DNA from: an uncultured Acidobacteriota bacterium
GTDB lineage: Bacteria > Acidobacteriota > Thermoanaerobaculia > UBA5066 > Gp7-AA6
Assembly: GCA_963733955.1 (NCBI GenBank)
Contig: CAVTEW010000002.1
Span: 5,863 to 69,862 of the forward strand
Length of the DNA: 64,000 nt
Direction: 5' to 3'
Shown here piece by piece: positions 16,429 to 62,431 of this stretch; the first letter of the stretch is position 1; the number at the start of each line of letters is the position of its first letter. The translations under genes and the position numbers were made by a program. Below the pieces are notes generated by a model, which had not been told where the DNA came from, searched no databases, and saw only the letters and a program-made list of their open reading frames with translations.

Positions 16429-16430
16429 CC

Positions 16431-35294: not shown

Positions 35295-35314
35295 AAGGGT
35301 CGCGCTCTCGCGGT

Positions 35315-35330: not shown

Positions 35331-35377
35331 TGCGCGAATCCGGCGAGTGCGAGACCCTGACATTCGGACGAAGCACC

Positions 35378-36466: not shown

Positions 36467-36496
36467 CCGCTTCACGTCCCCGAGAGGAGAAGGCAA

Positions 36497-36907: not shown

Positions 36908-36948
36908 CCGACCAGCCTCGCCTCTTCTTCCGTTCCTTCGCGGTTCCA

Positions 36949-38006: not shown

Positions 38007-38070
38007 CAGCCCGTGGAAAAATCGATGCGGGTGTCGCGTCAGGGCTTTTGCATTTCTCAGCAAGCAAACA

Positions 38071-38104
38071 TCCGTGCCGGTTCAACGGAGTTCGTCCCGG
38101 CACG
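38071..38104. terminator. Hairpin CCGTGCCGG-N16-CCGGCACGG
   Basis: 9-bp perfect stem 65 nt after the USP stop. Confidence 0.35.
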
Positions 38105-38132
38105 GATCCGCGGTGCACGGCAGGCAAAAGCC

Positions 38133-38158
38133 CCGCCGCCGCAAGCGGTTGCGGCGGC
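38133..38158. terminator. Hairpin CGCCGCCGCAA-GCGG-TTGCGGCGGCG
   Basis: 11-bp perfect GC-rich stem with a 4-nt loop and no T-tract. Confidence 0.4.
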
Positions 38159-38314
38159 GCGAAGCCGTCTGCGTCGTTGCCGCTCCTCCCCGATGCGTTC
38201 CACATCGCCTTCGTCGCGTCGCCTCGCATCCGGCTCCGCGGCGCTCGCAACGCCACCGCACACCCTTCTTCCACGAGCCGCTAGGAGGCGAGGTTCCGGT
38301 GTCCCGGAAAGGCG

Positions 38315-38758
38315 GTGATGGCGATGCGCGTTGAGGACCTCATGACTTCGCGGGTCTTGACCGTCTCCGCGGGGGAGTCCGCGGAGCACGCCTTCGCTCT
38401 CATGCGCGAGCGGCGGATCCATCACCTGGTCGTGCTTCGGAACCAGGAAGTGGTGGGCATCGCCTCGGCTCGGGATCTGGAGGCCGCCGGCACCTTCCGG
38501 CAGGTCCAGGTCGTCGAGGACGTGATGACTTCCCCCGCCGTCACCGCCGTTCCGGAGATGACGTTGCGCCAGGCGGCGAACCTGCTGCGCGGCCGCAGCA
38601 TCGGATGCCTGCCTGTGATGGACGGCGGCGACCTGGTCGGCATCGTGACGACGACCGATCTCCTGGAGGCGCTGGGACGGGGCGTGGCCCGGCCGCTCTC
38701 CCAGACCAAAGGGTGGGTCGTCAAGAGCCGCGGGCCGCGGCGCAAGGCCGCCGGTTAG
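38315..38758 (+). CDS. CBS-pair domain protein
   Basis: MRVEDLMTSRV..HHLVVLRNQEVVGIASARDL..GCLPVMDGGDLVGIVTTTDL. Confidence 0.9.
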   Translation: MMAMRVEDLMTSRVLTVSAGESAEHAFALMRERRIHHLVVLRNQEVVGIASARDLEAAGTFRQVQVVEDVMTSPAVTAVPEMTLRQAANLLRGRSIGCLPVMDGGDLVGIVTTTDLLEALGRGVARPLSQTKGWVVKSRGPRRKAAG

Positions 38759-38807
38759 GACCGAAACAGCCGGATGGGCGAGAGGTCGGCTCCCGACGCC
38801 CGCTCAC

Positions 38808-38823
38808 TGATTCGAACGCATCA
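38808..38823. promoter_or_regulatory. Palindromic box TGATTCGAACGCATCA
   Basis: Exact core, 79-94 nt upstream of the USP start at 38902. Confidence 0.5.
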
Positions 38824-38901
38824 TGGCTGCCGCTGAGGGCGGCGAGATGCTGCAGGGGGCTCGCGGCCATCGGTTGGTCGCCCTCCCCTGGAGGAGACGG
38901 C

Positions 38902-39345
38902 ATGGCCTCTTTCCGACGCATCTTTTACGCCACGGATTTTTCCGAAGCCTCGGCCGGGGCCTTCCAGAAGGCGCTCGAGATCGCCGGAAAGGAAGGCGCC
39001 GAGCTGGTGATCGCGCACGCCTACCTGCCGCCGAGCCTGTGGGCCGACGGATTCGTGGCCCCGGCGGTGTACCAACAGGTGGATACCGGCATGCGGGAAG
39101 AATCGGAGAAGAGGCTCGCGGCGCTCCAGGAGCAAGCCCGCAAGGCCGGTGTGAACGCCCGGACGCTGGTGCTCCTGGGCGCCGCCAACGAGGCCATCAC
39201 CGCCGCCGCCGCCGAGAACAATGCGGATCTTGTGATCCTGGGGACCCACGGGCGCACCGGCGCCGCGCGTTTCTTTCTGGGAAGCGTGGCCGCGCGCGTG
39301 ATCTCCACGGCATCCTGCCCGGTGCTGACCGTTCGGGCAAGTTAG
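38902..39345 (+). CDS. Universal stress protein
   Basis: MASFRRIFYATDFSEAS..DLVILGTHGRTGAARFFLGSVAARVISTASCPVLTV. SD GGAGGAG. Confidence 0.9.
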   Translation: MASFRRIFYATDFSEASAGAFQKALEIAGKEGAELVIAHAYLPPSLWADGFVAPAVYQQVDTGMREESEKRLAALQEQARKAGVNARTLVLLGAANEAITAAAAENNADLVILGTHGRTGAARFFLGSVAARVISTASCPVLTVRAS

Positions 39346-39508
39346 AGGGCCTGCCGGTGTTCTCGACGGACGAGCCGAGCCGCCCGGCCGCGCCGGTGCG
39401 CCGAAGGCGCAGACTCCAAGCGCAGCGTAGGCGACGGTCATGCCAACGCCTCACGAGCAAACCAGCACCGCGCGATCCTGATTTTGCGGACGGAGAAAGG
39501 AGCAGGCC

Positions 39509-39955
39509 ATGGAATCCTTCCGGCGCATTCTCTTCGCGACGGATTTCTCTCCCGCGTCGGGCAAGGCCTTCAACGAGGCGATCGAGCTGGCCAGGACCGC
39601 CGGGGCGCAGCTGCTGATCGTCCACGCGTACCAGCCGCCCTCGCTGCTCCCGACCGACGTGTCCCTGAGTCCGGCGGTCTACGACGAGCTGGACGCCAAG
39701 CTCCGCGAGGGCGCGGAAATCGGACTCCGGAAGCTCGTCGAGGACGCCGGCCGCCGGGGACTTCGGGCGGAATCCTTCCTCCTGGCGGGCCTCGCGGACG
39801 AGGCCATCGCCGAGGCGGCGCGCGAGAAGCGGGCCGACCTCGTGGTCGTGGGGACGCACGGGAGGACCGGCGTGGCCCGGTTTCTCATGGGAAGCGTGGC
39901 CTCCCGCGTCATCACGTCGGCTCCCTGCCCGGTGATGACGGTCCCGGCGAACTGA
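39509..39955 (+). CDS. Universal stress protein
   Basis: MESFRRILFATDFSPAS..DLVVVGTHGRTGVARFLMGSVASRVITSAPCPVMTV. SD AAAGGAG. Confidence 0.9.
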   Translation: MESFRRILFATDFSPASGKAFNEAIELARTAGAQLLIVHAYQPPSLLPTDVSLSPAVYDELDAKLREGAEIGLRKLVEDAGRRGLRAESFLLAGLADEAIAEAAREKRADLVVVGTHGRTGVARFLMGSVASRVITSAPCPVMTVPAN

Positions 39956-44867: not shown

Positions 44868-48467
<3,600 letters not shown>

Positions 48468-48595: not shown

Positions 48596-49396
48596 TCAGA
48601 CCGGCCCGGGATCGCCCAAGCGGCTCGAAGCCGCCGCGCGCCCGTCGAGACGGCCGAGAAGCCGCAGGAGGCCGTCGAGAATCGTCAACGGGTGGGGAGG
48701 GCAGCCCGGTATGGACAGATCGACAGGGATGTCCGCGGGGACGCCGTCGCGCGAGGACTGCGCCCCGGCGAACGGGCCGCCGGTCAAAGCGCACGCGCCC
48801 ACCGCGATCACGATCTTCGGCGCGGGAACCGCCGCGTAGGTCTCGCGCAGCGCGAGCTCCATGTTGGTGGTCACCGGGCCGGTCACGACGATCCCGTCGG
48901 CGTGCCGTGGAGAGGCCACGAACTGGATTCCAAAACGCCCGAGATCGAAGACCACGTTGCCCGTCGCGGTGAGCTCGGCTTCGCAGCCGCTGCAGCCGCC
49001 GGCGGAGACTTGACGCAACTTGAGCGAACGGCCGAAGAGCGCGCGCATGCCCCGGTCGAGCGCCGCCATCCGCGGCGCCTCGGCGCCCGAGACGATGAGG
49101 CCCGCTCGCGACCGCGCGGCCAGGCGATGGTCCTGCGTGTAGACGATTGCGCCCTCGGGGCACGACTCCTCGCAAATCGGGCAGAACAGGCATGCCCCCA
49201 GATCGACGCGCAAGGGCTCGGTCCCGATCGCCTGGGTCGGGCAAGCCTCGGCGCAGGCGCGGCACCCGTCCCGGCACTTGGAGGCGTCGACGATCGGGCG
49301 GCCTCGAAATCGCGACGGGAGCCGGACGCCCTCCGGAGGAAAGGCCATCGTCCGATGCCCCTGGCGCAGCCGGGCCCTCCACAGCTCGAAGATCAC
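48596..49396 (-). CDS. Ehr/Hyc-type small subunit: N-terminal 2x[4Fe-4S] ferredoxin (HycF-like) fused to a NuoB/HycG-like domain
   Basis: CRDGCRACAEACP and CLFCPICEESCP, then NuoB-like Cys (GGCSGCEAEL, VGACALTGGPF, IPGCPPHP). GTGA overlap with the large-subunit stop. Confidence 0.85.
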   Translation of the reverse strand: MIFELWRARLRQGHRTMAFPPEGVRLPSRFRGRPIVDASKCRDGCRACAEACPTQAIGTEPLRVDLGACLFCPICEESCPEGAIVYTQDHRLAARSRAGLIVSGAEAPRMAALDRGMRALFGRSLKLRQVSAGGCSGCEAELTATGNVVFDLGRFGIQFVASPRHADGIVVTGPVTTNMELALRETYAAVPAPKIVIAVGACALTGGPFAGAQSSRDGVPADIPVDLSIPGCPPHPLTILDGLLRLLGRLDGRAAASSRLGDPGPV

Positions 49397-50979
49397 AGAT
49401 CGTGTCCCGCGTAGGAGAGATTGAAGCTCTTGTTGCAGAGCGGAAAGTCGGAGATCTGGCCGCCCCGCAGGGCCATCGCCAGGCCGAACCAGTTGTGAAA
49501 GGACGGGTCGACGACTTGATAGCCCACGAGCCGTCCATCCGAGGATGTGGCGGCCACGTGCGCGATCTCGCCGCGCCAGCCCTCGACGATCGCGACGGCG
49601 AGACTGTCGGGGGAGAGACGGTCAACGGAGCGATCGGGCCCGACAGAGAGCGTTTCCGGCGGCAGCTCGTGGATCTGCTCTCGGAGGAAGGTCAGCGACC
49701 GCTGCGTCTCGAGCCAGCGGACGAGGGCACGCGCCATGACGTCTCCGGACTCGACGCGGGCGACCGGAATATGGGCGAACCGGTAGATGCCGAACGGGTG
49801 ATCGCGGCGCGCGTCCCGATCGCAGCCGCTGGCCCGCGAGACCGGACCGACCAGGCCGAGCGCTTGCGCGGTCTCCTGAGTGACGACGCCAGTGTGCTCG
49901 AAGCGCGAGCCGACCGACGGGGAGTCGAAGGTCGCCTGCGCCGTGTCCTTCAAATCCCTCTCGGCCGCGGCCAGACGGGGGAGAAAATCTCTTCGCTGCT
50001 CGGCAGACAGTCCGAACCGCACGCCTCCCGGCCTGAGGAGGCCTCTGCCGAAGCGGTTTCCGGAAAGGTCCAGAAGGAGGTTCAGGAACTCGCCCCGGAG
50101 GCGCCCGAACCAGGACGCGCCCGGCAGAAAGCCGATGTCGTTGCAGAGCGAACCCAGGTCTCCGGCGTGGTTGGAGAGGCGTTCGAGCTCCAGCGCGATC
50201 CCGCGCACGGCGTGGGCGTAGAGCGGTGGCTCGAGGCCGGCCAGCGATTCCACCGCCATGCAGTAGGCGAGGGCGTGGCCCACGGCGGTGTCTCCGGCGA
50301 TCGATTCCGCGACCGCCAGTCGCCGCGCGGGAGAAGATCGGAGAAGGAGCTCCTGCGCGCCGCGATGCTGGTAACCGAGCTGGATCTCGAGGTGGTGGAC
50401 GATCTCGCCCTGGCACTGAAACCGGAAGTGGCCGGGCTCGATGATGCCCGCGTGCACGGGCCCGACCGCGACCTCGTGGATCCCCGATCCTTCCACGCGA
50501 AAGAATGGATGGGGCTCGGCGCTCTTTGCGCCGTCGGTCCGGGTCTCAAGGTCCGCATGACGGCGCAAGGGCTTCAACCAGGGATGCCCGTCGGGGTGGA
50601 TCCCGTGATCCTCGGCGATCTCGCGCTCGAATGCCTGCGCCTGGGGGATCTCGGTCGAGAGGGCCGGATAGCTCCGGCTCTTGGGGACGGGCGTCTTCAG
50701 CAGGCCGAGGGTTCCTCGGGCGTCGTCCGCCAGCACCGCGAGGATTTCGTGCCTTTGCTCCGAATCTCGCTTCTCCGCCGGAAGGATGCACAGGGCAACG
50801 AGTCGACCACCCCGCGAGCAGATGTCGACGCAAGATCTCCGAAAGGAGCCAAGGGGAAACTCCGGAACGTCCACTCGCCGAATGGCCGAGCCGCTCCTGG
50901 TCCAGAGCGGCGAAACAATCGTGGGCGCCATCGCTCCCGGCGAGGCTCCTTTCTCGTTGGGCGTCTCTGCCACGGTCAT
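49393..50979 (-). CDS. NuoC+NuoD / HycE-like large subunit lacking NiFe-binding cysteines (Ehr-type)
   Basis: Clear homology (GPVHAGIIEPGHFRF, HLEIQLGYQHRG). AESIAGDTAVGHALAY replaces RxCGxCxxxH, and the C-terminus ISDFPLCNKSFNLSYAGHDL replaces DPCxxCxxR. SD GGGAGG and an ATGA overlap upstream. Confidence 0.85.
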   Translation of the reverse strand: MTVAETPNEKGASPGAMAPTIVSPLWTRSGSAIRRVDVPEFPLGSFRRSCVDICSRGGRLVALCILPAEKRDSEQRHEILAVLADDARGTLGLLKTPVPKSRSYPALSTEIPQAQAFEREIAEDHGIHPDGHPWLKPLRRHADLETRTDGAKSAEPHPFFRVEGSGIHEVAVGPVHAGIIEPGHFRFQCQGEIVHHLEIQLGYQHRGAQELLLRSSPARRLAVAESIAGDTAVGHALAYCMAVESLAGLEPPLYAHAVRGIALELERLSNHAGDLGSLCNDIGFLPGASWFGRLRGEFLNLLLDLSGNRFGRGLLRPGGVRFGLSAEQRRDFLPRLAAAERDLKDTAQATFDSPSVGSRFEHTGVVTQETAQALGLVGPVSRASGCDRDARRDHPFGIYRFAHIPVARVESGDVMARALVRWLETQRSLTFLREQIHELPPETLSVGPDRSVDRLSPDSLAVAIVEGWRGEIAHVAATSSDGRLVGYQVVDPSFHNWFGLAMALRGGQISDFPLCNKSFNLSYAGHDL

Positions 50980-52418
50980 CCTCCCAGCATGCCGGCGGCC
51001 CGGCGCAAGGCGTCCGCCAGGATTGGAGGAAGATAGATTCCCACCGCGAGCGCTCCGGCCGCGAGAGCGAGCGGCGGCAAGATCGAAAGCCGCGGCTCGC
51101 GAGACCGCGGCGCGCCTTCGTCGGGCGCTCCCTGGAGCATCGGGAGAAGAGTCCCGGCCATGCCCAGAAAGGCCACCGTCAAGAAAGCGACGAAGAGAAC
51201 GCCGATCCAGGCGTGGGGCCCTCTCAACGCCTCCTGAAAGATCAGGAACTCGCTCCAGAATGGTCCGAACGGCGGCAGGCCACCGATCGCGAGGAAGAGC
51301 GCCGCCATCAGGGCGCCGGTCGTTGGAATCCTTGCGAGCACTCCACGCGCCTCGCGAGCGGTCGTCGTCCGGAAGACTCGAAGGACGTTGCCCGCCAGGA
51401 GGAAGAGACCCGCCTTGCAAAGCGAGTGGTTCACCGAATGAAAGATCGCGCCGTACGCCGCGGTGCCCCCGAGCCCGACGCCGGCGGCCATGATTCCCAT
51501 GTTCTCGATGCTGGAATAGGCGAAGAGACGCTTGTAGTCGCTCTGGCCCACCAGGAAAGCGCACGCGACACCCATCGACACGAAGCCGAGGACAACGAGC
51601 AACGTTCGCGCGAACGCCGCGTCACCGGAAGCCAGGCAAACCTGGAAGAAACGCAGGATCGCCAGGAAGGCGCAGTTCAAGAGTGCTCCCGAGAGAAGCG
51701 CCGAGACGGGCGACGGAGCCTGACTGTGCGTGTCCGGGAGCCAGGTGTGGAGAGGCGCGAGGCCCATCTTGGTTCCGTATCCCACCAACGCGAGAATAAA
51801 GGCCGCCTTGAGCCATGGCCGCGCCATCCCGGGGGCTGCGGCTTCAAGCGTCCTGAGCATGAGACCGGCTTTCCCGCCGGAGACCGCCGACGCCGCGACC
51901 CCAAGGCAAAAAGTTCCGAGTAGCGCCAGGGCAATTCCCACCGAGCAGAGAAGCAGGTACTTCCAGGCCGCCTCGAGAGCTCCCCGCCGGCGATAGAAAT
52001 AGACGAGCGGCGCGCTGGCGAGCGTCGTTCCTTCGACGGCCGCCCACATCAGGGCAAGGTTCTGGGTGACCGACACCAGGCTCATGGCCGCCAGAAACGC
52101 AAGCAGGCAAGGCACGAATCGGTGCGGCGCCGCCTGCGTGTCGTGAGTGCCCTGAAGAATGTAGGGGACCGTGTAGACCGCGACGAGCAGGAAGAGAGCG
52201 CTGGTGATCGACAGGAAAATCAAGCCGATCACATCGAGCTGCAGGAGCGTTCCGAAGGTCTTCGACGGAGCGCCGGCCCAAAGAACCGCTGTCGCCGCGA
52301 AATGAAGCAGCGCTCCTCCCAGGAGGATGCCGAGGCCGACGCGAAGATCTTTGACCGCGAGCGCCAGGAGCCCCAGAGCGGCCGGCGCAAGAACGAGGAA
52401 AGCCAGGAGCCACGTCAT
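50976..52418 (-). CDS. Antiporter-like membrane subunit (NuoN/HyfF/MrpD family)
   Basis: GYGTKMGLAPLHTWLPDTHSQAPSPVSALLSG and LFAYSSIENMG are typical of proton-conducting subunits. Confidence 0.88.
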   Translation of the reverse strand: MTWLLAFLVLAPAALGLLALAVKDLRVGLGILLGGALLHFAATAVLWAGAPSKTFGTLLQLDVIGLIFLSITSALFLLVAVYTVPYILQGTHDTQAAPHRFVPCLLAFLAAMSLVSVTQNLALMWAAVEGTTLASAPLVYFYRRRGALEAAWKYLLLCSVGIALALLGTFCLGVAASAVSGGKAGLMLRTLEAAAPGMARPWLKAAFILALVGYGTKMGLAPLHTWLPDTHSQAPSPVSALLSGALLNCAFLAILRFFQVCLASGDAAFARTLLVVLGFVSMGVACAFLVGQSDYKRLFAYSSIENMGIMAAGVGLGGTAAYGAIFHSVNHSLCKAGLFLLAGNVLRVFRTTTAREARGVLARIPTTGALMAALFLAIGGLPPFGPFWSEFLIFQEALRGPHAWIGVLFVAFLTVAFLGMAGTLLPMLQGAPDEGAPRSREPRLSILPPLALAAGALAVGIYLPPILADALRRAAGMLGG

Positions 52419-52423
52419 CCCCG

Positions 52424-53077
52424 TCAGCCCCTGAGAGTCGAGAGCAGTTCGGTGTCGATATGCTCGAACTCGCGGCTGATGTGATTGATCGCGATCCCCA
52501 TCACGAAGACGCCCACGAGCAAGTCCAGAAGGATCCCCAGCTCGACCGCAAACGGGACCTGCTCGACCAGTGTCTGGCCGAATATGAAGATGCCGTTTTC
52601 CAGCATCAGGTAACCCACGACCTGAGTGACCGCCTTCCGACGGCTGACGAGGACCAGGAATCCCACGAGCACCGTCGCGAAGGCCATGGGAACGAGCAGG
52701 GGCGTCGGCGCAGGCCTGGGCAGAACGAGAACCGTGCCGAGCCAGAACGAGAACCCCACCAGCGCTGCCGCGATGAGGAGGGAGAAGTGCAGGCTGATGA
52801 AAGGCTCGGCCTCGCGGCGCACATTGGCCTCGCGAATCGCACGGGAAAGCAAGAGCGGAATGACGATGGCCTTGACGGCCAGCGCTCCCAGGCTCATCAA
52901 CGCGACGGGTACCAGATGCCGGTCGAGCGACGGGCCCCAGAGCGCGAGAGGCAAGAGCGAGAGCGCCACGCCCTGCAGCGCCGAGGCCCGCACACAGCTC
53001 GTCAGGCGGCTGGTGGCGACGATGGAGACGGAAAGCGTGGTCACGACCAGGAGCAGAAGATCCGCGTAACCGCTCAT
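52424..53077 (-). CDS. HyfE-like small membrane subunit
   Basis: 217-aa polytopic protein with GYLMLENGIFIFG, characteristic of HyfE/EhrC-type subunits. ATGA overlap with the upstream gene. Confidence 0.75.
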   Translation of the reverse strand: MSGYADLLLLVVTTLSVSIVATSRLTSCVRASALQGVALSLLPLALWGPSLDRHLVPVALMSLGALAVKAIVIPLLLSRAIREANVRREAEPFISLHFSLLIAAALVGFSFWLGTVLVLPRPAPTPLLVPMAFATVLVGFLVLVSRRKAVTQVVGYLMLENGIFIFGQTLVEQVPFAVELGILLDLLVGVFVMGIAINHISREFEHIDTELLSTLRG

Positions 53078-53997
53078 GGCGCGCCCCGGTAGAAGAGAGC
53101 GGCCAGGCCGATGGCGGCGAGCACGGCCGCCCCGACCAGGAACTGGGGCACTCGAGGAAGCCGCAGCCGAGCCACCACCGACTCGACCACGCCCACGAGC
53201 ACCGCCAGTGCGATCTCGCCGACGCAGAGCAAGGCGGCGCCCTGCCATCCGCCCCCAGCAGGGATCGGCAAGAGAATATGGGTGAGCAGCGCTCCGATCA
53301 CGAAGAGCTTGACGGCGCTGCCGTAAGACACGAACGCGAGATCCGGGCCCCCGTGATCGAGCACCATGACCTCGTGGACCATCGTCAGCTCGAGGTGGGT
53401 GTTGGGGTCGTCCACGGGGATGCGGGAATTTTCCGCAAGGAGGACGGCGAACAGCGAGAGCGCCGCGGCCAGATAGGTCGGATGCTCGAATCCCCATGTC
53501 GCCCACGGCAGCTGCCGGAACGCATCCCCGAAGGTCGCGCTCCGGGCGGGGACGCAGAGGATCGCGACCGAGAGAAAGAGAGCCGGCTCCGCCAGGGCCG
53601 CAAAAGCGGCTTCGCGACTGGCTCCCATTCCTTCGAAGCTCGAACCGGTGTCGAGGGCGGCGGCCATGGTGAAGAACCGACCGAGGCCGAGCAGATAGGC
53701 AAAGAGGACGACGTCTCCGGGAAAGCCGAGAGGCGAAGCGTTGGCCGCTAGAGGCAGCACGAGACCGGCGCACAGCACGGCGGCGAGTGAGACGATCGGT
53801 CCGGCACGAAAAATCCAGGTCGCGGTGCGGCTGTAGACGGCGCCTTTCCGAAGCAATTTCCAGAGATCGCGATAGGGCTGGAGAAGGGGCGGGCCAAGCC
53901 TTCCCGCGAACCAGGCCTTCGTCTTGTTGATCATGCCCGGGAGCAGCGGCGGCACGAGCAGAAGAAGTGCCAGGTGAATCCCGAGGTCCAACATCAT
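53074..53997 (-). CDS. NuoH/HycD-like membrane subunit
   Basis: INKTKAWFAGRLGPPLLQPYRDLWKLLRK.. and ENSRIPVDDPNTHLELTMVHE, typical of HycD/HyfC. Confidence 0.85.
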   Translation of the reverse strand: MMLDLGIHLALLLLVPPLLPGMINKTKAWFAGRLGPPLLQPYRDLWKLLRKGAVYSRTATWIFRAGPIVSLAAVLCAGLVLPLAANASPLGFPGDVVLFAYLLGLGRFFTMAAALDTGSSFEGMGASREAAFAALAEPALFLSVAILCVPARSATFGDAFRQLPWATWGFEHPTYLAAALSLFAVLLAENSRIPVDDPNTHLELTMVHEVMVLDHGGPDLAFVSYGSAVKLFVIGALLTHILLPIPAGGGWQGAALLCVGEIALAVLVGVVESVVARLRLPRVPQFLVGAAVLAAIGLAALFYRGAP

Positions 53998-53998: not shown

Positions 53999-55987
53999 TC
54001 ACTGTCCCATTCCCGTGAGCTGCCAGACCAGGAGCGCGACGAGGGTCACCGCGATGTAGACGAGATAGAGCTGGAGGCGGCCCTGCTGGATCGCATGGAG
54101 CCGGGAAAGCGCCCGAACCACGCGCCGGACCGCGGGCAAGAGAATCCGCTCGCCGGCCATGTCGCCCAGGTGTTCTTCATAGTGGGCCGCGCCTGGAAAA
54201 TATCCATCGGGGCCCTGTTGGTCGACGCGCGTGGAAATCACCGGCGTGAACAGCGCGAGAATCGGCTGTGCGAAGGAGGCTGCAGTGTACTGCATTCGAG
54301 AGGTTCCCGCCGCGTAGCCGCAGCCCCAGGTCGCCCCCCGCGACACCGAACGGCCGCGAAGGAGGGCCAGGCGGACCAGTCCGAGCAGCAGAACGAGAAC
54401 GAGGAGCACGACGCTCACTCGCGTGATTGCGGAAAGCGCTGCGGCGTTGGGAAACGCGTCCGCCTTCTTTCCGAGAAACGCAGCCGTCGGCGCCACGACC
54501 CGCATCGCTCCCGCCGGCCAGAGTCCAATCGCGAAGCACAGGAGCGCCCCCAAAAGCATCGGCGCTCGCATCAGGGGCCCGGCTTCGTGGGCCTTCGAAG
54601 CGGCCTCCGTGCGGGGCTGACCCAGGAAAACGACGCCGAACGCCTTCACGAAGCACGTCGCGGCCAACCCCCCGACGAGCGCCAGCGCCGGAACCACGGC
54701 GAGCGCCCAAACAGCCCATGTGGTTGGGAAGAAGGCGCCGCCCCGGAACGCGCCGATGTAGATCAGCCACTCACTGACGAAGCCATTGAGAGGCGGCAGA
54801 CCGCAGATGGCGACGGAACCGACGAGAAACGTCGCGGCTGTCGTTGGCATGCGGCGGGAGAGGCCTCCGAGTTTGTCGATGTCCCGCGTACCGGTGCCGT
54901 GAGCGACGCTGCCGGCTCCCTGAAAAAGAAGACCCTTGAAGAGCCCGTGATTGAGAACATGGAGCAGAGCTCCCGCGAAGCCCAGGAAGGCGACGGAAGG
55001 GTTTCCCTGGCTCTGCCCCAGAAGACCAAGGCCAATTCCCAGCGCAATGATTCCGATGTTCTCGACGCTGTGGTAGGCCAGGAGACGCTTGAGGTCGTGC
55101 TGAGCCAGGGCATGGAGCACGCCGGCCACCCCGGAAACGGCTCCGATGGCGATCAGGAGAGCGCCCCACCACACCGGCGGCGGCCCGAGGAACGAAAGAA
55201 TTCGGAGCAGCCCGTAGATCCCCATCTTGATCATCACGCCCGACATCACGGCGGAGACGTGACTCGGCGCGGCCGGGTGCGCGTCGGGGAGCCAGATGTG
55301 CATCGGCCAGAAGCCGGCCTTGGTCCCGAAACCGACGACGGCGAGCAGGAACGCAACACCCGCGAGCGCCGGAGTCGTGGCGCCGGCCGCCGCCAGAGCG
55401 TCGAAATCGTAGGTGCCCGACTCCTTGCCCAGAACGGCGATCAGGACGAACAGGAAGACGACGCCGAGCTGGGAGGCGATCAGGTACGTCATCCCGGCCC
55501 GGCGAACCTCCTCGCGCTCGCTCTCGAAAGTCACAAGGAAGAACGAAGCCAGCGTCATGATCTCCCAGGCCAGGAGAAAGAGAATGCCGTCCCGAGCGAT
55601 CGCCACCACGGCCATGGCGGCGACGAGCAGGTTGAAGAAGAAAACGGCCGGCGCCAGGCGCCGCTTCCCGAGGTCGGCACGCAGGTATCCTCCCCCGTAA
55701 ATCGCCGAGAGGCCCGACACCAGGAAGACGCAGACCAGGAAGAACGAGGAGAGCGGGTCGAGCGCGACGTGGAGCTCTCCCACCGGCAGCGGCCAGGCCG
55801 CGCGCAGCCCGCTCCGCGAGCCTGAGATCAGCGCGGAAAAGGCCGCCGAAAGACCCGTGGCGCAAGCGAGCCCGGCTCCGACCGTGCCGATCCACAGCGC
55901 GGCTCGGTTGGAACGGCCCGACAGGGCCGCGGCGAGGGCGCTGGCGCACAGGAGAGCGATCGAAAGCAGGACGATCTCGAGCTGCAC
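53999..55987 (-). CDS. NuoL/HycC/HyfB-like antiporter-type membrane subunit
   Basis: GFGTKAGFWPMHIWLPDAHPAAPSHVSAVMSGVMIKMG and LLAYHSVENIG. GTG 55987 is chosen as the start because the longer ORF overlaps the upstream regulator. Confidence 0.85.
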   Translation of the reverse strand: MQLEIVLLSIALLCASALAAALSGRSNRAALWIGTVGAGLACATGLSAAFSALISGSRSGLRAAWPLPVGELHVALDPLSSFFLVCVFLVSGLSAIYGGGYLRADLGKRRLAPAVFFFNLLVAAMAVVAIARDGILFLLAWEIMTLASFFLVTFESEREEVRRAGMTYLIASQLGVVFLFVLIAVLGKESGTYDFDALAAAGATTPALAGVAFLLAVVGFGTKAGFWPMHIWLPDAHPAAPSHVSAVMSGVMIKMGIYGLLRILSFLGPPPVWWGALLIAIGAVSGVAGVLHALAQHDLKRLLAYHSVENIGIIALGIGLGLLGQSQGNPSVAFLGFAGALLHVLNHGLFKGLLFQGAGSVAHGTGTRDIDKLGGLSRRMPTTAATFLVGSVAICGLPPLNGFVSEWLIYIGAFRGGAFFPTTWAVWALAVVPALALVGGLAATCFVKAFGVVFLGQPRTEAASKAHEAGPLMRAPMLLGALLCFAIGLWPAGAMRVVAPTAAFLGKKADAFPNAAALSAITRVSVVLLVLVLLLGLVRLALLRGRSVSRGATWGCGYAAGTSRMQYTAASFAQPILALFTPVISTRVDQQGPDGYFPGAAHYEEHLGDMAGERILLPAVRRVVRALSRLHAIQQGRLQLYLVYIAVTLVALLVWQLTGMGQ

Positions 55988-55992
55988 CGGAC

Positions 55993-56685
55993 TTACTCGG
56001 AGCGCGCCGCGGCGGCGCGGGCCTCTTCTTCGATGGCGCGGAGACGGTCCAGGATCTCTTCCCGCGGCGCGGTTCTCTCCAGGAGGCTCTGGAGCGCGTC
56101 GTCGTGCAAGGCGAAGGCGAGGCGGGCGAACATCTGGAGGTGGACCCGCACCGACGGCGACAGCAGCACGAACAGGACGCGCACGGGCCGGCCGTCCAGG
56201 GCATGAAAATCGATCGGCCGGCGGAGGAAACAAACCAGGACCACAGGCTCATCGGTGTGAACCACGACGGGATCGCGCGGGTGCGGAATCGCGATGCCGT
56301 TGCCGATGCCGGTCGACGCGAGCGCCTCCCGCGCGGCCAGGAGCTGGTGGAGGAGCTGCCGGTCGACGCGCGGCGGGATCCCCGGCAACCGGGAAACCGC
56401 CTGCAGAACGTCCTCGCGCCGCTCGCCCGGGATGTCGTAGAAGATGCCGCCCCGGCCGATCGCCGCGGAAAGGCTCGAGACCTCTTCGGACGCGCCGTTG
56501 CCGGCGAGCAGCTCGGGCGAGACCCGATGCTCGTGCAGCGCGGCCCACTCCTGCAGCTCGACGCGGTGGAACATGTACTGGTCATGAATCCGGTGAGCCG
56601 GCAGGGAGCCGCTGCGGATCCAGCGGTAGATGGTCTGCTCCGAAACGTTGAGCAGGCGAGCGACGTCTCGAACTCTCAGTTCCAT
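55993..56685 (-). CDS. HTH (excisionase/MerR-like) + PTS EIIA(Ntr/Fru)-type domain regulator
   Basis: MELRVRDVARLLNVSEQTIYRWIRSGSLPAHRI, and an EIIA-2 core with the TGIGNGIAIPH histidine loop. Confidence 0.8.
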   Translation of the reverse strand: MELRVRDVARLLNVSEQTIYRWIRSGSLPAHRIHDQYMFHRVELQEWAALHEHRVSPELLAGNGASEEVSSLSAAIGRGGIFYDIPGERREDVLQAVSRLPGIPPRVDRQLLHQLLAAREALASTGIGNGIAIPHPRDPVVVHTDEPVVLVCFLRRPIDFHALDGRPVRVLFVLLSPSVRVHLQMFARLAFALHDDALQSLLERTAPREEILDRLRAIEEEARAAAARSE

Positions 56686-56734
56686 CGGCGCAAGCTCCTC
56701 GCGAGTCTCGAAAGTGGGACGGCCATGACCCTGG

Positions 56735-57475
56735 CTAGCGCTTGGCCGGCTTGGTCCCGGCGGCTGTCCGGGGCCCATCGTCCAAGGCGACCTTGCGCTC
56801 CGTCGCGGCAACGGCCCGAAAGATCGACTGGGCGTCGGACGCGTCGAGGACGGCCCGGACGGCCTCCGCGCGCGCGAACATGTGCGCGAGCTTGTTGAGC
56901 CACGGAAGGTAGAGCTCCTCGAACTTGAGGCCGAGCGCGAAGAAGAGATGGGTCGGCCCGCCGTCCAGAGCGTCGAAGTCCACTCCCGGCCGCGAGCGGC
57001 CGAGGAGCATGAACGGACGGGAGACCTGCTCGGGATTTCGGCGCAGGGTGTGGAGAAAGGCGACGCCGTTGCCCATGGCGCTGGGCATCACATTCTCGCG
57101 CTCGATCAACGCCCCGACGAACCAGGTCTTGTCCCGCACGAGGCCTAATCGGGCGGCCAGACCCGCGAGCTCCTCGATGACCGTGTTCTTCGTCGCGGCT
57201 TCCAGATCGGGCACGATGTGGTCCGGCTGAAAGCAGGTGGCCAGCGCGAGCATGCGCCGTGGGGAGCCTTCCAGGCGCGGCGCGTCCACGTACCGCGGCA
57301 TCACGCCGAGCATCTGGTCGTCGAGCCACGTGTCGATCATGGCCTTCCGAAAGCGCCACTGGTTCCCCACCTTGACTCCGGGGAGGGCGCCGTCCGAGAC
57401 GAGCTTGGCCACGGTCCGGTCGTTCACGCTCAGGTACTCCGCCAGCTGCTTGATCGTCATCAAACGATCTTCCAT
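56735..57475 (-). CDS. HTH (excisionase/MerR-like) + PTS EIIA-type domain regulator (paralogue)
   Basis: LMTIKQLAEYLSVNDRTVAKLVSDGALPGVKVGNQWRF, and EIIA-like SAMGNGVAFLH. SD GGAGAA lies 9 nt before the ATG. Confidence 0.8.
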   Translation of the reverse strand: MEDRLMTIKQLAEYLSVNDRTVAKLVSDGALPGVKVGNQWRFRKAMIDTWLDDQMLGVMPRYVDAPRLEGSPRRMLALATCFQPDHIVPDLEAATKNTVIEELAGLAARLGLVRDKTWFVGALIERENVMPSAMGNGVAFLHTLRRNPEQVSRPFMLLGRSRPGVDFDALDGGPTHLFFALGLKFEELYLPWLNKLAHMFARAEAVRAVLDASDAQSIFRAVAATERKVALDDGPRTAAGTKPAKR

Positions 57476-57528
57476 CGCGCTTTTCTCCGGTGTTTTGGGG
57501 ATCAGCCAGTCAGTTTTCCGGGCGCGCC

Positions 57529-57558
57529 ACTGTAGGGTAGAAATACGTCTGTTGTCAA
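57529..57558 (-). promoter_or_regulatory. Sigma70-like promoter TTGACA-N18-TACAGT
   Basis: Read on the minus strand in an AT-richer patch. The -10 lies about 55 nt upstream of the HTH-EIIA start codon. Confidence 0.4.
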
Positions 57559-57627
57559 CGAAAGGCGTTATTTGACTCAAAACAACCTCAAAATGCGCCG
57601 GACGCGGATCTTTCCAGCCCTGTTCTT

Positions 57628-58740
57628 CTAGGACTGGAGAATCATTCTTGCGTCACGAGCGACGGCGAGCTCCTCGCGCGTCCGGATGACCAGAATCCTC
57701 GCGCGGGCGGATGGCGCGGCCACGTCGGCGTCGGGGACGCACGCGGCGTTGGCGGCGGAGTCCAGGGACGCGCCCAGGAACCCGAGGGTCTCGCAGACCG
57801 CTTCGCGCAGCGAGGCGGAATGCTCGCCGACTCCGGCCGTGAAAACGAGTGCGTCGAGTCCGCCCAGGCCGGCCGCGAGCGCGCCGATCGCGCTCCGCAC
57901 GCGGTCGGCGTAGATCGCCAGGGCCAGCCGGGCCCGTTCATGACCTCCGGCGGCCGCCTTCTCGACGTCCCGATAATCCCAAGAGAGTCCCGAAACGCCC
58001 AGGAGCCCCGACCGGTGGTTGAGCAGGTCGTCCAGCGTCTCCGGGGAGAGCCCGCGCCGGCGCGCGGCCCACAGCAGAATTCCCGGATCGAGCGATCCCG
58101 ACCGCCGCCCCATCATCAGGCCCTCCATGGGCGTGAAGCCCATCGTGGTCGCGACGGGAGATCCGTCCAGGACGGCCGCCGCCGAGCAGCCGTTGCCGAG
58201 GTGGCAGACCACCAGGCGCCGGGGCCGCGCCGGCAGGATCTGCGCGGCGCGCCCGGCGCAATAGGAGTGGCTCAACCCGTGGAAGCCGAACCGGCGGATT
58301 CCCCAGTCGGCCGTCCATTCCCAGGGCACCGGGTAGACGCGCGCGCGGGCGGGAAGGGCGGCGAAGAAGGCGGTGTCGAAGGCGGCGAACTGCGGAATTT
58401 CCGGCAGCGCCTCCCCGACCGCCTCGATGACCGCCAGCGCCGGCGGATTGTGGAGCGGGGCGAGCTCGGAAAGGGCCCGGAGGGACGCCAGGACGGTTTC
58501 GCCGATCCGCACGGTCTGCCCGAACGCGTCCCCCCCATGGACGACGCGGTGGCCGACGGCACGGATCGAGTTTGACCCGGCTGCTGGAGCGACGGAGCGG
58601 AGAACCCGCTGCGCCGCCGCCCGGTGGCCGTCCGGCTCGGGAGACACGTCTTCGGCGCCCGAAGAGATCTCGTCGCGCGCCTCGTCGTCGAAGAGGGCGT
58701 GCTTCAGCGTGCTCGAGCCGGCGTTGAAGACGAGGATCAT
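57628..58740 (-). CDS. ackA: Acetate kinase
   Basis: MILVFNAGSSTLKHALF, HRVVHGG, GFHGLSH and FTAGVGEHS. Confidence 0.92.
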   Translation of the reverse strand: MILVFNAGSSTLKHALFDDEARDEISSGAEDVSPEPDGHRAAAQRVLRSVAPAAGSNSIRAVGHRVVHGGDAFGQTVRIGETVLASLRALSELAPLHNPPALAVIEAVGEALPEIPQFAAFDTAFFAALPARARVYPVPWEWTADWGIRRFGFHGLSHSYCAGRAAQILPARPRRLVVCHLGNGCSAAAVLDGSPVATTMGFTPMEGLMMGRRSGSLDPGILLWAARRRGLSPETLDDLLNHRSGLLGVSGLSWDYRDVEKAAAGGHERARLALAIYADRVRSAIGALAAGLGGLDALVFTAGVGEHSASLREAVCETLGFLGASLDSAANAACVPDADVAAPSARARILVIRTREELAVARDARMILQS

Positions 58741-58745
58741 GGCGG

Positions 58746-58808
58746 GGCGTGAGGCGTGAGGCGGGAGGCGTGAGGCGTGTGGCGAGAGGCGTGAGGCGTG
58801 AGGCGGAA
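58746..58808. repeat. Nine tandem heptamers GGCGTGA (variants GGCGGGA, GGCGTGT, GGCGAGA, GGCGGAA) abutting the ackA start codon
   Basis: Read directly from the sequence. On the coding (minus) strand they read TCACGCC x9 and end 5 nt before the ackA ATG. Confidence 0.8.
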
Positions 58809-58840
58809 CGCCAAAGGTTTCATGGACCGGGTCTCGGCTT

Positions 58841-58868
58841 CGCCTAACGCCTAACGCCTAACGCCTTA
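58841..58868. repeat. Four tandem heptamers CGCCTAA x3 + CGCCTTA (the last contains the xfp stop codon)
   Basis: Read directly from the sequence. They are the near reverse complement of the GGCGTGA array 33 nt away. Confidence 0.8.
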
Positions 58869-61274
58869 CGACTTGGAGGTCCCAGTCGGCCACTTCCAGT
58901 TTGCGACTTCCGGCGGGTCGACGCCGTGGTCGGAGACGTAGGGCCGATGCCTGCGCACCTTCTCTTCGTACGCGCGGACGATCTCCTCGGCCCGCGCCGC
59001 CGAGGACGGCGTCCGCGCGGCGATCTTCTCGGCCGCCTGGATCACGATGTGGTAGCGGCTGGTGCGGTTGCGCACGTGCATGTCGAACGGAGTGGTGGTC
59101 GAACCCTCCTCCCGGTAGCCGTTGACGTCGAATCGCTCGTTGCCGGGCCGCTCCCAGCACAGCTGCTTGATGGCGGCGGTGTAGCCGTGGAAGTTGAAGA
59201 CGACCGGAACGGCGAGGGGGAAGAGGCGCTGAAAGCGGTCTTCGGTCAGACCGTGCGCGTATTTCTGGGGAATGCCGAGCGCCACCAGGTCCGTGACGTT
59301 GACGACGCGCACGCGCCAGTCCGGCGCCTCCGAGCGCAGGAGGGAAGCGGCGGCAAGGACCTCGATGGTCATGTTGTCCCCGCAGGCGGCCAGGACGACC
59401 TGGGGATCCTCCCCGCCGTTGGTGGAGGCCCAGCGCCAGATCGACGCTCCCAGCCGGCAATGCTCGACGGCCTCCGGGAGCGAGAGCCACTGGGCCATGG
59501 GCTGCTTGCCCGCGATGACGAGGTTGATGTAGTTGACGGACCGGAGACAGTGGTCGATCGTGGAGAGGAGGCTGTTGGCGTCGGGGGGCAGGTAGATCCG
59601 ATAGGTGTGCCCCTTCTTGGTCAGGAGATTGTTGATGAAGCCCGGCCCCTGGTGGGAAAACCCGTTGTGGTCCTGCCTCCAGGCCTCCGACGTCAGCAGA
59701 TAGTTGAGCGACGAGACCGGCTTCCTCCAGGACACCTCGCCGGAAGCCTTCAGGAACTTGGCGTACTGATTCATCATCCCGTCGATGATCGGGATGAACG
59801 CCTCGTAGCACGGAAAGAGCCCGTGCCGCCCGGTCAGCAGATACCCCTCGAGCCAACCCTGGCAGAGATGCTCGGAGAGGACCTCGAGCACCCGGCCGTC
59901 CCGCGCGGTCTTCTCCGTCCCCTCGGGCAGCGGCCAGTCGTACTGCCGCCGCGTCACGTCGAGGAGGCCGCCCAAGCGGTTGGACTCGAGCTCGTCGGGG
60001 CAGACGATCCGGAAGTTGCGGGCGCGCTCGTTGTCCGTCAGGACGTCGGAGAGGTAGCCGGTCAGGGCCTGCATGTGGCTCACCACAGTGCCGCCCCGCG
60101 CGCCCGGATCGACGGCGACGGCGTGCTTGGCCAGGGGCGGAAGCTCCAGGGCCACGCGGCGGTCCCCGCCGAACGTCGCGGGGTTCATGGCGATGCGCTG
60201 CGCGCGGGGCGGGCACAGCTCGAGCAGATCGGGCGACGGATGGCCGTCCCCGTCGAAGAGCTCCTCGGGCCGATAGGATCGGAGCCAGCGCTCCAGGATG
60301 GCCAGGTGCTCCGGATTCGTCTTGGGATCCTTGACCGGGACCTGGTGCGCCCGGAAGCTCCCTTCGATCCGCTCGCCGTCGATCTCGCGCGGGGCGCCCA
60401 TGCCCTTGGGCGTTTCCAGGATCAGGAGCGGCCAGCGCGGCCGGGGGTCGGGGGCGCCGGCGCGCGCCCGCCGCTGGATCTCCAGGATCTGCGCGTGCGC
60501 CCAGGACAGCGCCTGGTCGAGATCCGCGTCGAGCCGGTCGAGCTGCGAGACGAAACGGACCGCGTAGCCGTGGCCGGTGTACAGCGCCTCGAGCTCCTCG
60601 CGGCTCATCGACGCGGAGATCGTGGGGTTGGAGATCTTGAAGCCGTTCAAGTGCAGGATGGGCAGGACCGCTCCGTCCGCGGCGGGGTTGACGAACTTGA
60701 TGCCGGTCCACGCCCCCGCGGTGGGGGCCGTCTCGGCTTCTCCGTCGCCCACGATGCAGACCACCAGCAGCTCGGGGTTGTCCAGGGCCGCGCCGAACGA
60801 GGTCGACAGCGCGTAACCCAGCTCGCCCCCCTCGTGGATGACGCCGGGCAGCGCCGGGGAGAGGTGGCTGGGAAAGCCGTAGGGCCAGGAGAAACGGGTC
60901 ATGAGGCGCTCGAGTCCGGCCGCGTCGCGGGTGATATCCGGGTAGAACTCGGTCATCGTGCCCTCGATCCACATGTTGGCCATGTTCGCGGCGGCCCCGT
61001 GGCCCGGCCCGGTGACCAGCATCACCGACGCGCCGGTTCGGAGGATCAATCGGTTCAGGTGGGCGTAGACGAGGTTGATGCCGGGCGCCGTGCCCCAGTG
61101 CCCCAGGAGGCGATCCTTGATGTGCGCGGCCTCGAGCGGGCGCGCGAGCAGCGGATTGGACTTGAGATAGATCTGTCCCGCCGCGATGTAGTCGACGGCG
61201 CGGCGATAGCGGGCCAGGCTGGAATCGGGGCCCGGTCGCTCGGACGACGCGGGGCGTTGGAGAGCGGTGGCCAT
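58866..61274 (-). CDS. xfp: Xylulose-5-P/fructose-6-P phosphoketolase
   Basis: 802 aa. YRRAVDYIAAGQIYLKSNPL, GHWGTAPG, EGGELGY and the GDGEAETAPTA TPP motif. Confidence 0.95.
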   Translation of the reverse strand: MATALQRPASSERPGPDSSLARYRRAVDYIAAGQIYLKSNPLLARPLEAAHIKDRLLGHWGTAPGINLVYAHLNRLILRTGASVMLVTGPGHGAAANMANMWIEGTMTEFYPDITRDAAGLERLMTRFSWPYGFPSHLSPALPGVIHEGGELGYALSTSFGAALDNPELLVVCIVGDGEAETAPTAGAWTGIKFVNPAADGAVLPILHLNGFKISNPTISASMSREELEALYTGHGYAVRFVSQLDRLDADLDQALSWAHAQILEIQRRARAGAPDPRPRWPLLILETPKGMGAPREIDGERIEGSFRAHQVPVKDPKTNPEHLAILERWLRSYRPEELFDGDGHPSPDLLELCPPRAQRIAMNPATFGGDRRVALELPPLAKHAVAVDPGARGGTVVSHMQALTGYLSDVLTDNERARNFRIVCPDELESNRLGGLLDVTRRQYDWPLPEGTEKTARDGRVLEVLSEHLCQGWLEGYLLTGRHGLFPCYEAFIPIIDGMMNQYAKFLKASGEVSWRKPVSSLNYLLTSEAWRQDHNGFSHQGPGFINNLLTKKGHTYRIYLPPDANSLLSTIDHCLRSVNYINLVIAGKQPMAQWLSLPEAVEHCRLGASIWRWASTNGGEDPQVVLAACGDNMTIEVLAAASLLRSEAPDWRVRVVNVTDLVALGIPQKYAHGLTEDRFQRLFPLAVPVVFNFHGYTAAIKQLCWERPGNERFDVNGYREEGSTTTPFDMHVRNRTSRYHIVIQAAEKIAARTPSSAARAEEIVRAYEEKVRRHRPYVSDHGVDPPEVANWKWPTGTSKS

Positions 61275-61321
61275 AAGAGCTCCTGGCGGCGCCCCGCCGG
61301 ATCCAGGCGCCGCGAAGAAGT

Positions 61322-61337
61322 TGATGTAATCACATCA
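61322..61337. promoter_or_regulatory. Palindromic box TGATGTAATCACATCA
   Basis: Perfect 6+6 inverted repeat in the divergent xfp / membrane-protein region, 48-63 nt from the xfp ATG. Confidence 0.6.
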
Positions 61338-61975: not shown

Positions 61976-62431
61976 ATGAAGATTCTCGTAGCCACAGACG
62001 GATCCAGAGGCAGCACGGCGGCCCTGAGCTTCGCTGCGAAACTCGCCGGCGGCGAGGGCGCGGAGCTGATCGTGCTGACCGTCGATCCGAGCAACGGGTC
62101 GCGGCCCGGACTCCGCGAGGTCGGCAAGGACGGTCCCGCGGCGGCCGTGCGGCCGGAAGCGCGCAAGACCCTGGACGCGGCGGCGCGCGAGATCAAGCGT
62201 CACCACGCCAAGGCCCAGTTTCAGACGATCTCGGCGAGGCGGCAGGACGAGATTCCCGACGTGATCTCCCGGGAAGCCGATCGGATCAAGGCCGATCTCG
62301 TGATCGTCGGAAGCGAAGGCCGGGACACCCTGAACGAATGGGTCGTCGGCGGCGTCGCCCTGCGCCTGATCTACGTGGCGCGCCGGCCGGTCACGGTCGT
62401 GCGTCCGCCCCGGCGCCGGCAGGCGAGCTAG
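61976..62431 (+). CDS. Universal stress protein
   Basis: MKILVATDGSRGS..DLVIVGSEGRDTLNEWVVGGVALRLIYVARRPVTVV. SD AAGGAG. Confidence 0.88.
   Translation: MKILVATDGSRGSTAALSFAAKLAGGEGAELIVLTVDPSNGSRPGLREVGKDGPAAAVRPEARKTLDAAAREIKRHHAKAQFQTISARRQDEIPDVISREADRIKADLVIVGSEGRDTLNEWVVGGVALRLIYVARRPVTVVRPPRRRQAS

Follow-up and report, generated by a model that had tools for sequence, protein, structure and literature searches.

Introduction

The Ehr complex was named in Geobacter sulfurreducens, where the abundance of its subunits varies with the electron donor (PMC7894505). The papers on Ehr that were consulted describe the complex and mention no regulator, and no paper linking Ehr with EIIA or helix-turn-helix (HTH) proteins was found in our targeted searches. 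In this work, we describe two regulator genes, REG1 and REG2, that precede an ehr gene cluster in a 64,000-nucleotide (nt) stretch of DNA from an uncultured Acidobacteriota bacterium of the Thermoanaerobaculia class (contig CAVTEW010000002.1). This whole stretch, which has a G+C content of 69%, is called the window. Both genes encode an HTH_17 DNA-binding domain followed by an EIIA domain similar to PtsN, the EIIA protein belonging to the nitrogen-related phosphotransferase system (PTS-Ntr). Only REG2, for which the name EhrR is proposed, is the Ehr-dedicated partner.

Comparison with described systems

PtsN is a protein of about 160 amino acids (aa) that is usually encoded in the rpoN region. 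The PtsN structures of E. coli (1A6J), Burkholderia (3URR and 4GQX), and Neisseria (2A0J) have their fold and active-site loop in common with REG2. The phospho-histidine, the upstream arginine, and the second histidine of PtsN are all conserved in REG2. PtsN stands alone and acts through binding to partner proteins, whereas REG1 and REG2 have a DNA-binding domain at the N terminus and are encoded in or beside the ehr operon. A 2026 review of PTS-Ntr presents partner binding as the mode of PtsN and includes no DNA-binding fusion (PMC13104625).

The nearest functional analogy to REG1 and REG2 is provided by the PRD activators. These activators (MtlR, LicR, ManR, and LevR) contain an EIIA domain of the Mtl/Fru/Ntr superfamily, and phosphorylation of its histidine tunes their activity. 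The PRD activators, which regulate sugar PTS operons, are proteins of about 600-700 aa or more in which two PRDs and an EIIB-like domain accompany a DeoR/Mga-type HTH. In contrast, REG1 and REG2 are a third of that size (230-246 aa), have HTH_17 without PRD or EIIB domains, and are associated with a respiratory-type complex.

The N-terminal domains of REG1 and REG2 match the HTH_17/TIGR01764 class of Xis, AlpA, BldC, and MADS1 above threshold. Those proteins are single-domain or have other partner domains, unlike REG1 and REG2, and we know of no HTH_17 DNA binder that has been described with an EIIA sensor. BldC and the excisionases bind head-to-tail direct repeats, and this binding mode fits the TGTCCA boxes that are phased by 10 bp in REG2 promoters. 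A palindrome within the promoter spacer of REG1 recalls the MerR activators, but REG1 has no MerR coiled coil and its spacer is 18 nt instead of 19-20 nt.

The Ehr of G. sulfurreducens (GSU0739-0745) has the subunit types of the six ehr genes in the window and likewise has no NiFe ligands. Three Geobacteraceae loci (L006, L008, and L009) exhibit the same REG2-Ehr arrangement as the window. We rate the combination found here, a minimal HTH-EIIA(Ntr) transcription regulator dedicated to a complex-I-like module, as new and as kin to the EIIA-domain regulators.

Layout of the regulator and ehr genes

The regulator genes and the ehr genes are all located on the minus strand of the window:

56735-57475, minus strand: REG1, 246 aa, HTH_17 and PtsN-like EIIA; ATG start with GGAGAA upstream
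55993-56685, minus strand: REG2 (EhrR), 230 aa, HTH_17 and PtsN-like EIIA
53999-55987, minus strand: ehrA, NuoL/HyfB-like antiporter subunit; Proton_antipo_M 1.3e-59; GTG start
53074-53997, minus strand: ehrB, NuoH/HyfC-like; NADHdh 2e-33
52424-53077, minus strand: ehrC, HyfE-like membrane subunit; synteny conserved
50976-52418, minus strand: ehrD, NuoN/HyfF-like antiporter subunit; Proton_antipo_M 7.2e-49
49393-50979, minus strand: ehrL, NuoCD/HycE-like large subunit; Complex1_49kDa and Complex1_30kDa
48596-49396, minus strand: ehrS, 2x[4Fe-4S] ferredoxin domain and NuoB-like small subunit; Oxidored_q6 1.3e-29 and Fer4 families

The REG2 TAA codon ends at 55993 and the ehrA GTG codon is located at 55987-55985. 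The resulting gap of 5 nt agrees with the preliminary description of this DNA, which placed the REG2 stop at that distance from the first Ehr membrane subunit and had identified the downstream complex as Ehr. The ehr genes are presumably co-transcribed with the regulator or regulators. Ehr is the right name for the six-gene cluster because the large subunit has lost all four NiFe cysteines, which are replaced by Ala, Thr, Ser, and Gly when ehrL is aligned to E. coli HycE (7z0s_E). A group-4-hydrogenase-like large subunit without the CxxC NiFe ligands is thus found with NuoB-, NuoH-, and antiporter-like partners; the five other genes are NuoL-, NuoH-, HyfE-, NuoN-, and Fer4+NuoB-like. No Pfam match was obtained for the ehrC protein of the window, and the match of its L023 orthologue to Oxidored_q2 is weak.

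Linkage of REG2 with the ehr genes

The linkage between REG2 and the ehr genes was found in genomes and metagenomes of at least six phyla. Among species-representative genomes, 10 of the 13 loci with a full-length REG2 relative have a NuoL-like ehrA as the next same-strand gene, followed by the rest of the cluster. The ten linked loci are from Thermoanaerobaculia, another Acidobacteriota metagenome-assembled genome (MAG), Myxococcota, Kiritimatiellae (three loci), a Verrucomicrobia MAG, and Geobacteraceae (three loci). The three unlinked loci (L010-L012, from Spirochaetes and a deltaproteobacterium) hold the most distant full-length relatives, with at most 42% identity, in other contexts. On metagenome contigs, the REG2 orthologue is followed by a NuoL-like gene in all 51 loci that have at least 600 nt downstream of REG2. 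The same gene order was observed in 3/3 look-ups that started from REG2, one of them a Zixibacteria MAG. When the look-ups started from the large subunit, a gene with HTH_17 and EIIA_2 was located immediately upstream of the cluster in 4/4 cases. The conservation of HTH-EIIA genes next to Ehr-type operons, which the preliminary description proposed to check in other genomes, is therefore observed. Neither of the two results that it had named as refuting, a missing EIIA fold or a linkage absent from related genomes, was obtained.

The flanking genes outside the seven-gene block vary from locus to locus. Only in the lineage of the window (L003 and partly L054) is the module accompanied by pyruvate:ferredoxin oxidoreductase (PFOR), phosphoketolase, and acetate kinase. 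With synteny maintained in at least six phyla against changing flanks, the REG2-Ehr linkage is not due to chance. Of the seven loci in which genes were called, six have a REG2 stop that overlaps the ehrA start by 1-4 nt. Compared with the window, REG2 has a median identity of 48% and EhrA one of 46%, so the regulator has diverged no more quickly than the structural subunits. Relatives of REG2 number about 370 at E <= 1e-30 among the 50%-identity cluster representatives.

Several variants of the arrangement were also observed. The Ehr clusters of Geobacter and Kiritimatiellae have two NuoL-like genes, whereas the window has one. Two tandem NuoL/HyfB-like genes follow REG2 in L005, L006, L007, L008, L009, L013, L033, L036, L064, L077, L081, L091, and L105, and they resemble EhrA-1/A-2 of G. 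sulfurreducens. L076 has a second, divergent NuoL/NuoH-like pair across REG2. In L011 (an uncultured deltaproteobacterium), the gene located 3' of a REG2-like gene (41% identity) encodes a 577-aa membrane protein (10700-12433) that looks by eye like a ClC-type channel and not like Ehr. Ion-transport proteins other than Ehr may therefore be partners of the wider HTH-EIIA family.

A tRNA-Ala(CGC) gene lies ahead of the REG2 orthologue in loci of the Kiritimatiellae/Verrucomicrobia type (L004 9882-9957, L005 3638-3713, L007 6375-6450, L073 7103-7178, and L088 564-639). A terminator-like hairpin in L004, L005, and L007 ends about 10 nt before the REG2 start and leaves no space for a promoter, which suggests read-through expression or insertion of the module beside the tRNA gene.

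Domains and active-site residues of REG1 and REG2

REG1 matches HTH_17 (PF12728) at 4.9e-14 (residues 5-54) and PTS_EIIA_2 (PF00359, Pfam cut-off 27 bits) at 2.4e-24 (residues 82-222). REG2 matches the same families at 2.5e-15 (residues 3-48) and 2.8e-21 (residues 81-215), and its domains are encoded at 56542-56679 and 56041-56445, respectively. The HTH_17 scores of the two proteins are 56.9 and 52.8 bits (cut-off 27), and those for the excisionase DNA-binding domain TIGR01764 are 45.5 and 54.5 bits (cut-off 28.8). Every family member has an intact HTH that scores above the threshold of Pfam. The match to the MerR family of Pfam is below the cut-off and was obtained for REG2 only, and the REG2 model has no long coiled coil. 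No PRD or EIIB family was found in REG1 or REG2 by the Pfam and NCBIfam scans. The scores for the PtsN equivalog TIGR01419 of NCBIfam are 62.7 (REG2) and 44.3 (REG1), below the cut-off of 138.7, and the fructose-IIA matches in NCBIfam are likewise under the equivalog cut-off.

All sequence matches in the PDB are PtsN proteins, four for REG2 (best 1.6e-12) and two for REG1. The AlphaFold model of REG2 (predicted local distance difference test, pLDDT, 87.7; predicted template modelling score, pTM, 0.84) consists of a small winged helix and an EIIA domain joined by a poorly predicted linker (residues 61-70). The best Foldseek matches of this model are PtsN 3urr, 2a0j, and 1a6j, with template modelling scores on the target of 0.76-0.80. 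They are followed by the non-phosphorylated EIIA-fold regulatory domains of Band 3/AE2-type exchangers. The EIIA fold is thus confirmed by Pfam, by the PDB sequence matches, and by the AlphaFold/Foldseek comparison. Both proteins combine HTH and EIIA as the preliminary description had read from the letters; the HTH peptides VARLLNVSEQTIYRWI and LAEYLSVNDRTVAKLV and the histidine loops GNGIAIPH and GNGVAFLH are present in the two proteins. The two had also been regarded as paralogues. They are related (E 2e-15), but since they are just 24% identical, they are distant paralogues and not the products of a recent duplication.

The R119, H135, and H182 residues of REG2 align with R57, the phospho-site H73, and the second histidine of PtsN. 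The active-site loop STGIGNGIAIPH of REG2 is identical to that of E. coli PtsN. All three residues are invariant in 14 sequences of distant phyla and in 50 closer ones. The H135 codon of REG2 is located at 56281-56283 and the corresponding H142 codon of REG1 at 57050-57052 (minus strand). At least 98% of 120 REG1 relatives retain the phospho-site histidine, and the second PtsN histidine is lost in REG1. Because the histidine and the arginine are invariant, we infer phosphorylation of the PTS-Ntr type. Domains of the EIIA fold that serve purely for binding normally have no phospho-acceptor histidine.

Candidate operator boxes in REG2 promoters

The regions upstream of REG2 orthologues (61 non-redundant regions) are enriched in two hexamers, TTGACA (31/61 regions against 3.3 expected) and TGTCCA (21/61 against 1.9 expected). 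In 12 of 15 cases, consecutive TGTCC motifs follow each other at a distance of exactly 10 bp. When the regions are anchored on TTGACA, the layout is fixed and consists of TTGACA(T)-N5-GGACA, a -10 element, and TGTCCA-N4-TGTCCA. A second type of REG2 promoter has both boxes filling the spacer. TGTCC-N5-TGTCC (at most one mismatch) has a density of 2.25/kb within 150 nt upstream of REG2, compared with 0.030/kb elsewhere, a 75-fold difference (95 loci, 1.45 Mb, both strands). About half of the matches elsewhere come from these promoters in the opposite-strand reading.

The presence of the boxes covaries with the residue at recognition-helix position 17 of REG2, at the start of this helix. The boxes are present in 40 of the 56 loci with Lys at this position (context ..VSEKT[IV]YRW..) and in 2 of the 33 loci with Gln, Asp, Glu, Arg, or another residue (Fisher p = 5.6e-10). 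This covariation, seen at the level of sequence, supports autoregulatory DNA binding by the REG2 family. The boxes overlap the core promoter, which argues for autorepression, and activation is possible.

TGTCC-N5-TGTCC (at most two mismatches) occurs in the window at the level of chance, with 54 matches against 52 expected. A matrix built from 20 canonical sites gave nothing above background in 55900-57700, and no common motif was observed in the 19 upstream regions of the Gln/Asp/Glu-17 subgroup that were inspected for its operator. A possible remnant is located in the 49-nt spacer between REG1 and REG2:

56716-56730, minus strand: possible remnant REG2-type half-sites GGTCA-N5-GTCCC; weak, with no score by the canonical matrix

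The REG1-REG2 spacers of relatives have GGACA-N5-ATCCA (L003) and GGACA-N5-GGTCA (L001).

REG1 and its predicted promoter

REG1 is, judged from its relatives, a separate Acidobacteriota family that is not tied to Ehr. Its 120 closest listed relatives are 74-87% identical, and those with an organism name are from Thermoanaerobaculia. Three REG1 orthologues (78-80% identity) are located away from Ehr, with a Zn_ribbon_9 gene next to them or facing another HTH-EIIA gene. A REG1-type gene neighbours REG2 in tandem orientation in the window, L001, L003, and L029, and in divergent orientation in L021, L028, and L110. A tandem pair of REG2-type genes is present instead in some lineages (L026, L081, and L105). 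Both regulators head the Ehr operon in the window, as first described; REG2 is Ehr-dedicated, and REG1 orthologues are often away from Ehr.

The Zn_ribbon_9 (PF02591) gene directly follows the REG1 orthologues in L106 (10727-11200) and L107 (10726-11181). Stand-alone EIIA_2 genes (153-157 aa) with Zn_ribbon_9 and ArsR-type HTH genes were observed divergent beside REG2 in L023 (8528-9353) and L111 (1792-2629). The EIIA/zinc-ribbon pairing recurs across loci.

Two elements were identified upstream of REG1:

57529-57558, minus strand: sigma-70-like promoter TTGACA-N18-TACAGT; -35 at 57558-57553 and -10 at 57534-57529
57535-57548, minus strand: candidate REG1 operator ACGTATTTCTACCC, a degenerate ACGT-N6-ACGT palindrome in the 18-nt spacer

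The promoter element is present as it was first described, and it is the sole sigma-70-like site in the 3.1 kb of 55800-58900 (0.0 in shuffles). The closest relative, L003, has TTGACA-N18-TAGAGT in the same place. In L001, the -10 hexamer and the spacer box GACGTATTTCTA are identical to the window and the -35 hexamer is not kept. A sigma-54 promoter upstream of REG1 was ruled out by eye because the GG/GC spacing is wrong.

The ACGT-N6-ACGT palindrome is found with at most two mismatches in all nine REG1-type upstream regions. The summed mismatches are 8 compared with 22.8 in shuffles (0/1000 shuffles as good), a statistic that is generous because the pattern was defined post hoc from the same nine sequences. 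The other eight REG1-type genes have the palindrome perfect or with one mismatch, such as ACGTAATATTACGT in L106, and L110 has the perfect copy ACGTCCAATTACGT. By its sequence, the predicted promoter is that of REG1 and carries the REG1-type palindrome, not a typical REG2 operator.

Proposed mechanism and alternative explanations

The explanation that we favour, and consider somewhat better than an even bet as a whole, is that REG2 is an autoregulator with a PtsN-type input and that REG1 forms a second tier in this lineage. A self-contained module of seven genes (REG2-ehrABCDLS) would begin with REG2, which would be a one-component regulator of transcription. The excisionase/MerR-like winged helix at the N terminus of REG2 would bind short repeats over the core promoter of its own module. 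In most lineages these repeats would be the TGTCCA boxes placed 10 bp apart just past the -10 element together with TGACA/GGACA at the -35 element, and this arrangement implies autoregulation, most likely repression. The likeliest input of the C-terminal PtsN-type EIIA domain, in which His135 and Arg119 are kept, would be phosphorylation by a carrier of the HPr/NPr type. The expression of the Ehr pump would then track the PEP (phosphoenolpyruvate):pyruvate and nitrogen state of the cell, and this would be in keeping with the neighbours that are specific to the lineage, namely PFOR, phosphoketolase, and acetate kinase. Both the sign of the regulation and the physiological signal are presumed here. 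In the lineage of the window, REG1 would have been placed in front and would supply the promoter with an ACGT-N6-ACGT operator in its 18-nt spacer, so that control would be two-tiered and the canonical REG2 boxes would have decayed. G. sulfurreducens, where the name Ehr originates, has an EI-Ntr (PMC2405797).

Several observations weigh against autoregulation by REG2 with a phosphorylated EIIA domain and a REG1 tier. The REG2 of the window has Gln at position 17 of the recognition helix and no canonical boxes, and the palindrome of the window, with two mismatches, is the weakest copy among the REG1-type genes and belongs to the set with the generous statistic mentioned above. Neither EI, HPr/NPr, nor a PTS permease was found among the open reading frames (ORFs) of the window, in line with the preliminary description, which had reported no EI, HPr, or sugar permease. 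The tblastn searches with HPr/NPr queries (E. coli sequences) gave no match in the window or in the REG2/Ehr flanks of the loci before L109-L112, and the sole match among the loci was at the classical ptsN locus L014. A protein in contact with the complex would also account for the translational coupling of REG2 and for a level of conservation that matches the structural subunits. Among public sequencing runs, no RNA run with the window sequence was found, and two soil DNA runs hold 6-9% of its words.

The lack of a PTS phosphocarrier gene in the window and in the flanks searched is the first point for the strongest alternative, in which REG2 binds ehr DNA and its EIIA domain is unphosphorylated and senses a small molecule or a partner protein, like the cytoplasmic domains of SLC4/Band 3. 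The Foldseek matches to the Band 3/AE2 regulatory domains, the loss of the second histidine in REG1, and the occurrence of the family in Kiritimatiellae, Verrucomicrobia, and Zixibacteria, which are phyla not known for PTS, point in the same direction. However, the histidine of the G-x-G-[IV]-A-[IV]-P-H loop and the arginine equivalent to R57 are invariant in all lineages sampled, a pattern that would not be expected of a pure binding domain, which normally loses the phospho-histidine, and the closest solved relatives by sequence are genuine PtsN proteins only. We give such an unphosphorylated sensor about one chance in a handful or slightly better, and a phosphorylated EIIA domain in an autoregulating REG2 is preferred.

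It is also conceivable, although unlikely, that REG2 has two roles, as a transcription factor gated by phosphorylation and as a direct partner of Ehr, and switches between DNA and the membrane complex. The signal read out by the PtsN-type domain could then, with the same low likelihood, be the PEP:pyruvate/nitrogen state or the load placed on the complex. If this were true, at least six phyla would have a PTS-type domain as an integral and co-inherited control of an ancient complex-I-like machine, and the signal of the regulator would reveal the physiological role of Ehr.

A still less likely explanation is that REG2 acts mainly after translation and gates Ehr by binding, in the way PtsN does with TrkA, KdpD, and PhoR, with DNA binding as a secondary or feedback function, for instance when REG2 is released from the membrane or sequestered there. 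The near-universal linkage, the stop/start overlap with ehrA in 6/7 called loci, and a divergence equal to that of the structural subunits are consistent with this explanation, and so is the partner-binding mode of PtsN in a review that mentions no DNA-binding fusion (PMC13104625). However, the HTH remains above the Pfam threshold in every member and the promoter boxes covary with the recognition helix. Gating of Ehr by binding is compatible with autoregulation by REG2, and both could hold.

That the adjacency is meaningless, with generic regulators or mis-annotated PTS sugar-transport components beside the cluster, as the database names 'PTS sugar transporter subunit IIA' and 'excisionase family DNA binding protein' and the unrelated contexts of REG1 orthologues might suggest, is highly improbable and is effectively refuted for REG2 by its synteny (51/51, 10/13, and 4/4 across at least six phyla with varying flanks) and by the lack of a PTS permease nearby.

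A regulator that is inherited with Ehr shows when the cell wants the complex. It is a first regulatory handle on Ehr and brings the function of the complex within reach of experiment. The operator boxes, a single histidine, and a tractable host, Geobacter, with the same arrangement are defined handles for further work. The REG2 architecture would extend PtsN-type signalling from partner binding to direct DNA binding. The findings also correct the annotation of at least 240 close 90%-identity clusters of both families, which, where named, carry the label 'PTS sugar transporter subunit IIA', 'nitrogen regulatory IIA', or 'excisionase'.

Other features of the window

Three metabolic genes flank the regulator and ehr genes:

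58866-61274, minus strand: phosphoketolase (xfp)
57628-58740, minus strand: acetate kinase (ack)
44868-48467, minus strand: pyruvate:ferredoxin oxidoreductase (PFOR)

No terminator was found in the 152-nt spacer between ack and REG1, and read-through from ack is therefore possible. The '16-bp box' that the first reading of this DNA had reported was not identified; exact k-mer counting gave GC-rich words and a heptamer array. A CRP/FNR-like palindrome, TGTGATTACATCAA, is located at 61321-61334, about 50 nt upstream of the phosphoketolase start, and may relate to that box. It is not significantly repeated in the window (7 compared with 2.7 expected, a number reached in 6/100 shuffles).

The spacer between xfp and ack has facing tandem arrays of the heptamers GGCGTGA (8.6 copies, 58746-58805) and CGCCTAA (4.3 copies, 58841-58870). 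As RNA, these arrays could pair into a long hairpin. The 13-mer CGCCTCACGCCTC of the arrays recurs intergenically at 10370-10382 and may be a REP-like element.

The Ehr/PFOR/Xfp cluster may be part of a low-energy or anoxia response island. The window is unusually rich in genes of the stress/dormancy type (9816-16847, 34264-39955, and 61976-62431). They include five CBS-pair proteins, three universal stress proteins confirmed by Pfam, and three more Usp-like ORFs recognised by eye. The window also has a ribosome hibernation factor, a P-type ATPase, RtcB with archease, and a KaiC-like ATPase beside a hybrid histidine kinase. A GNAT domain fused to an ADP-forming acetyl-CoA synthetase is encoded at 10417-13197.

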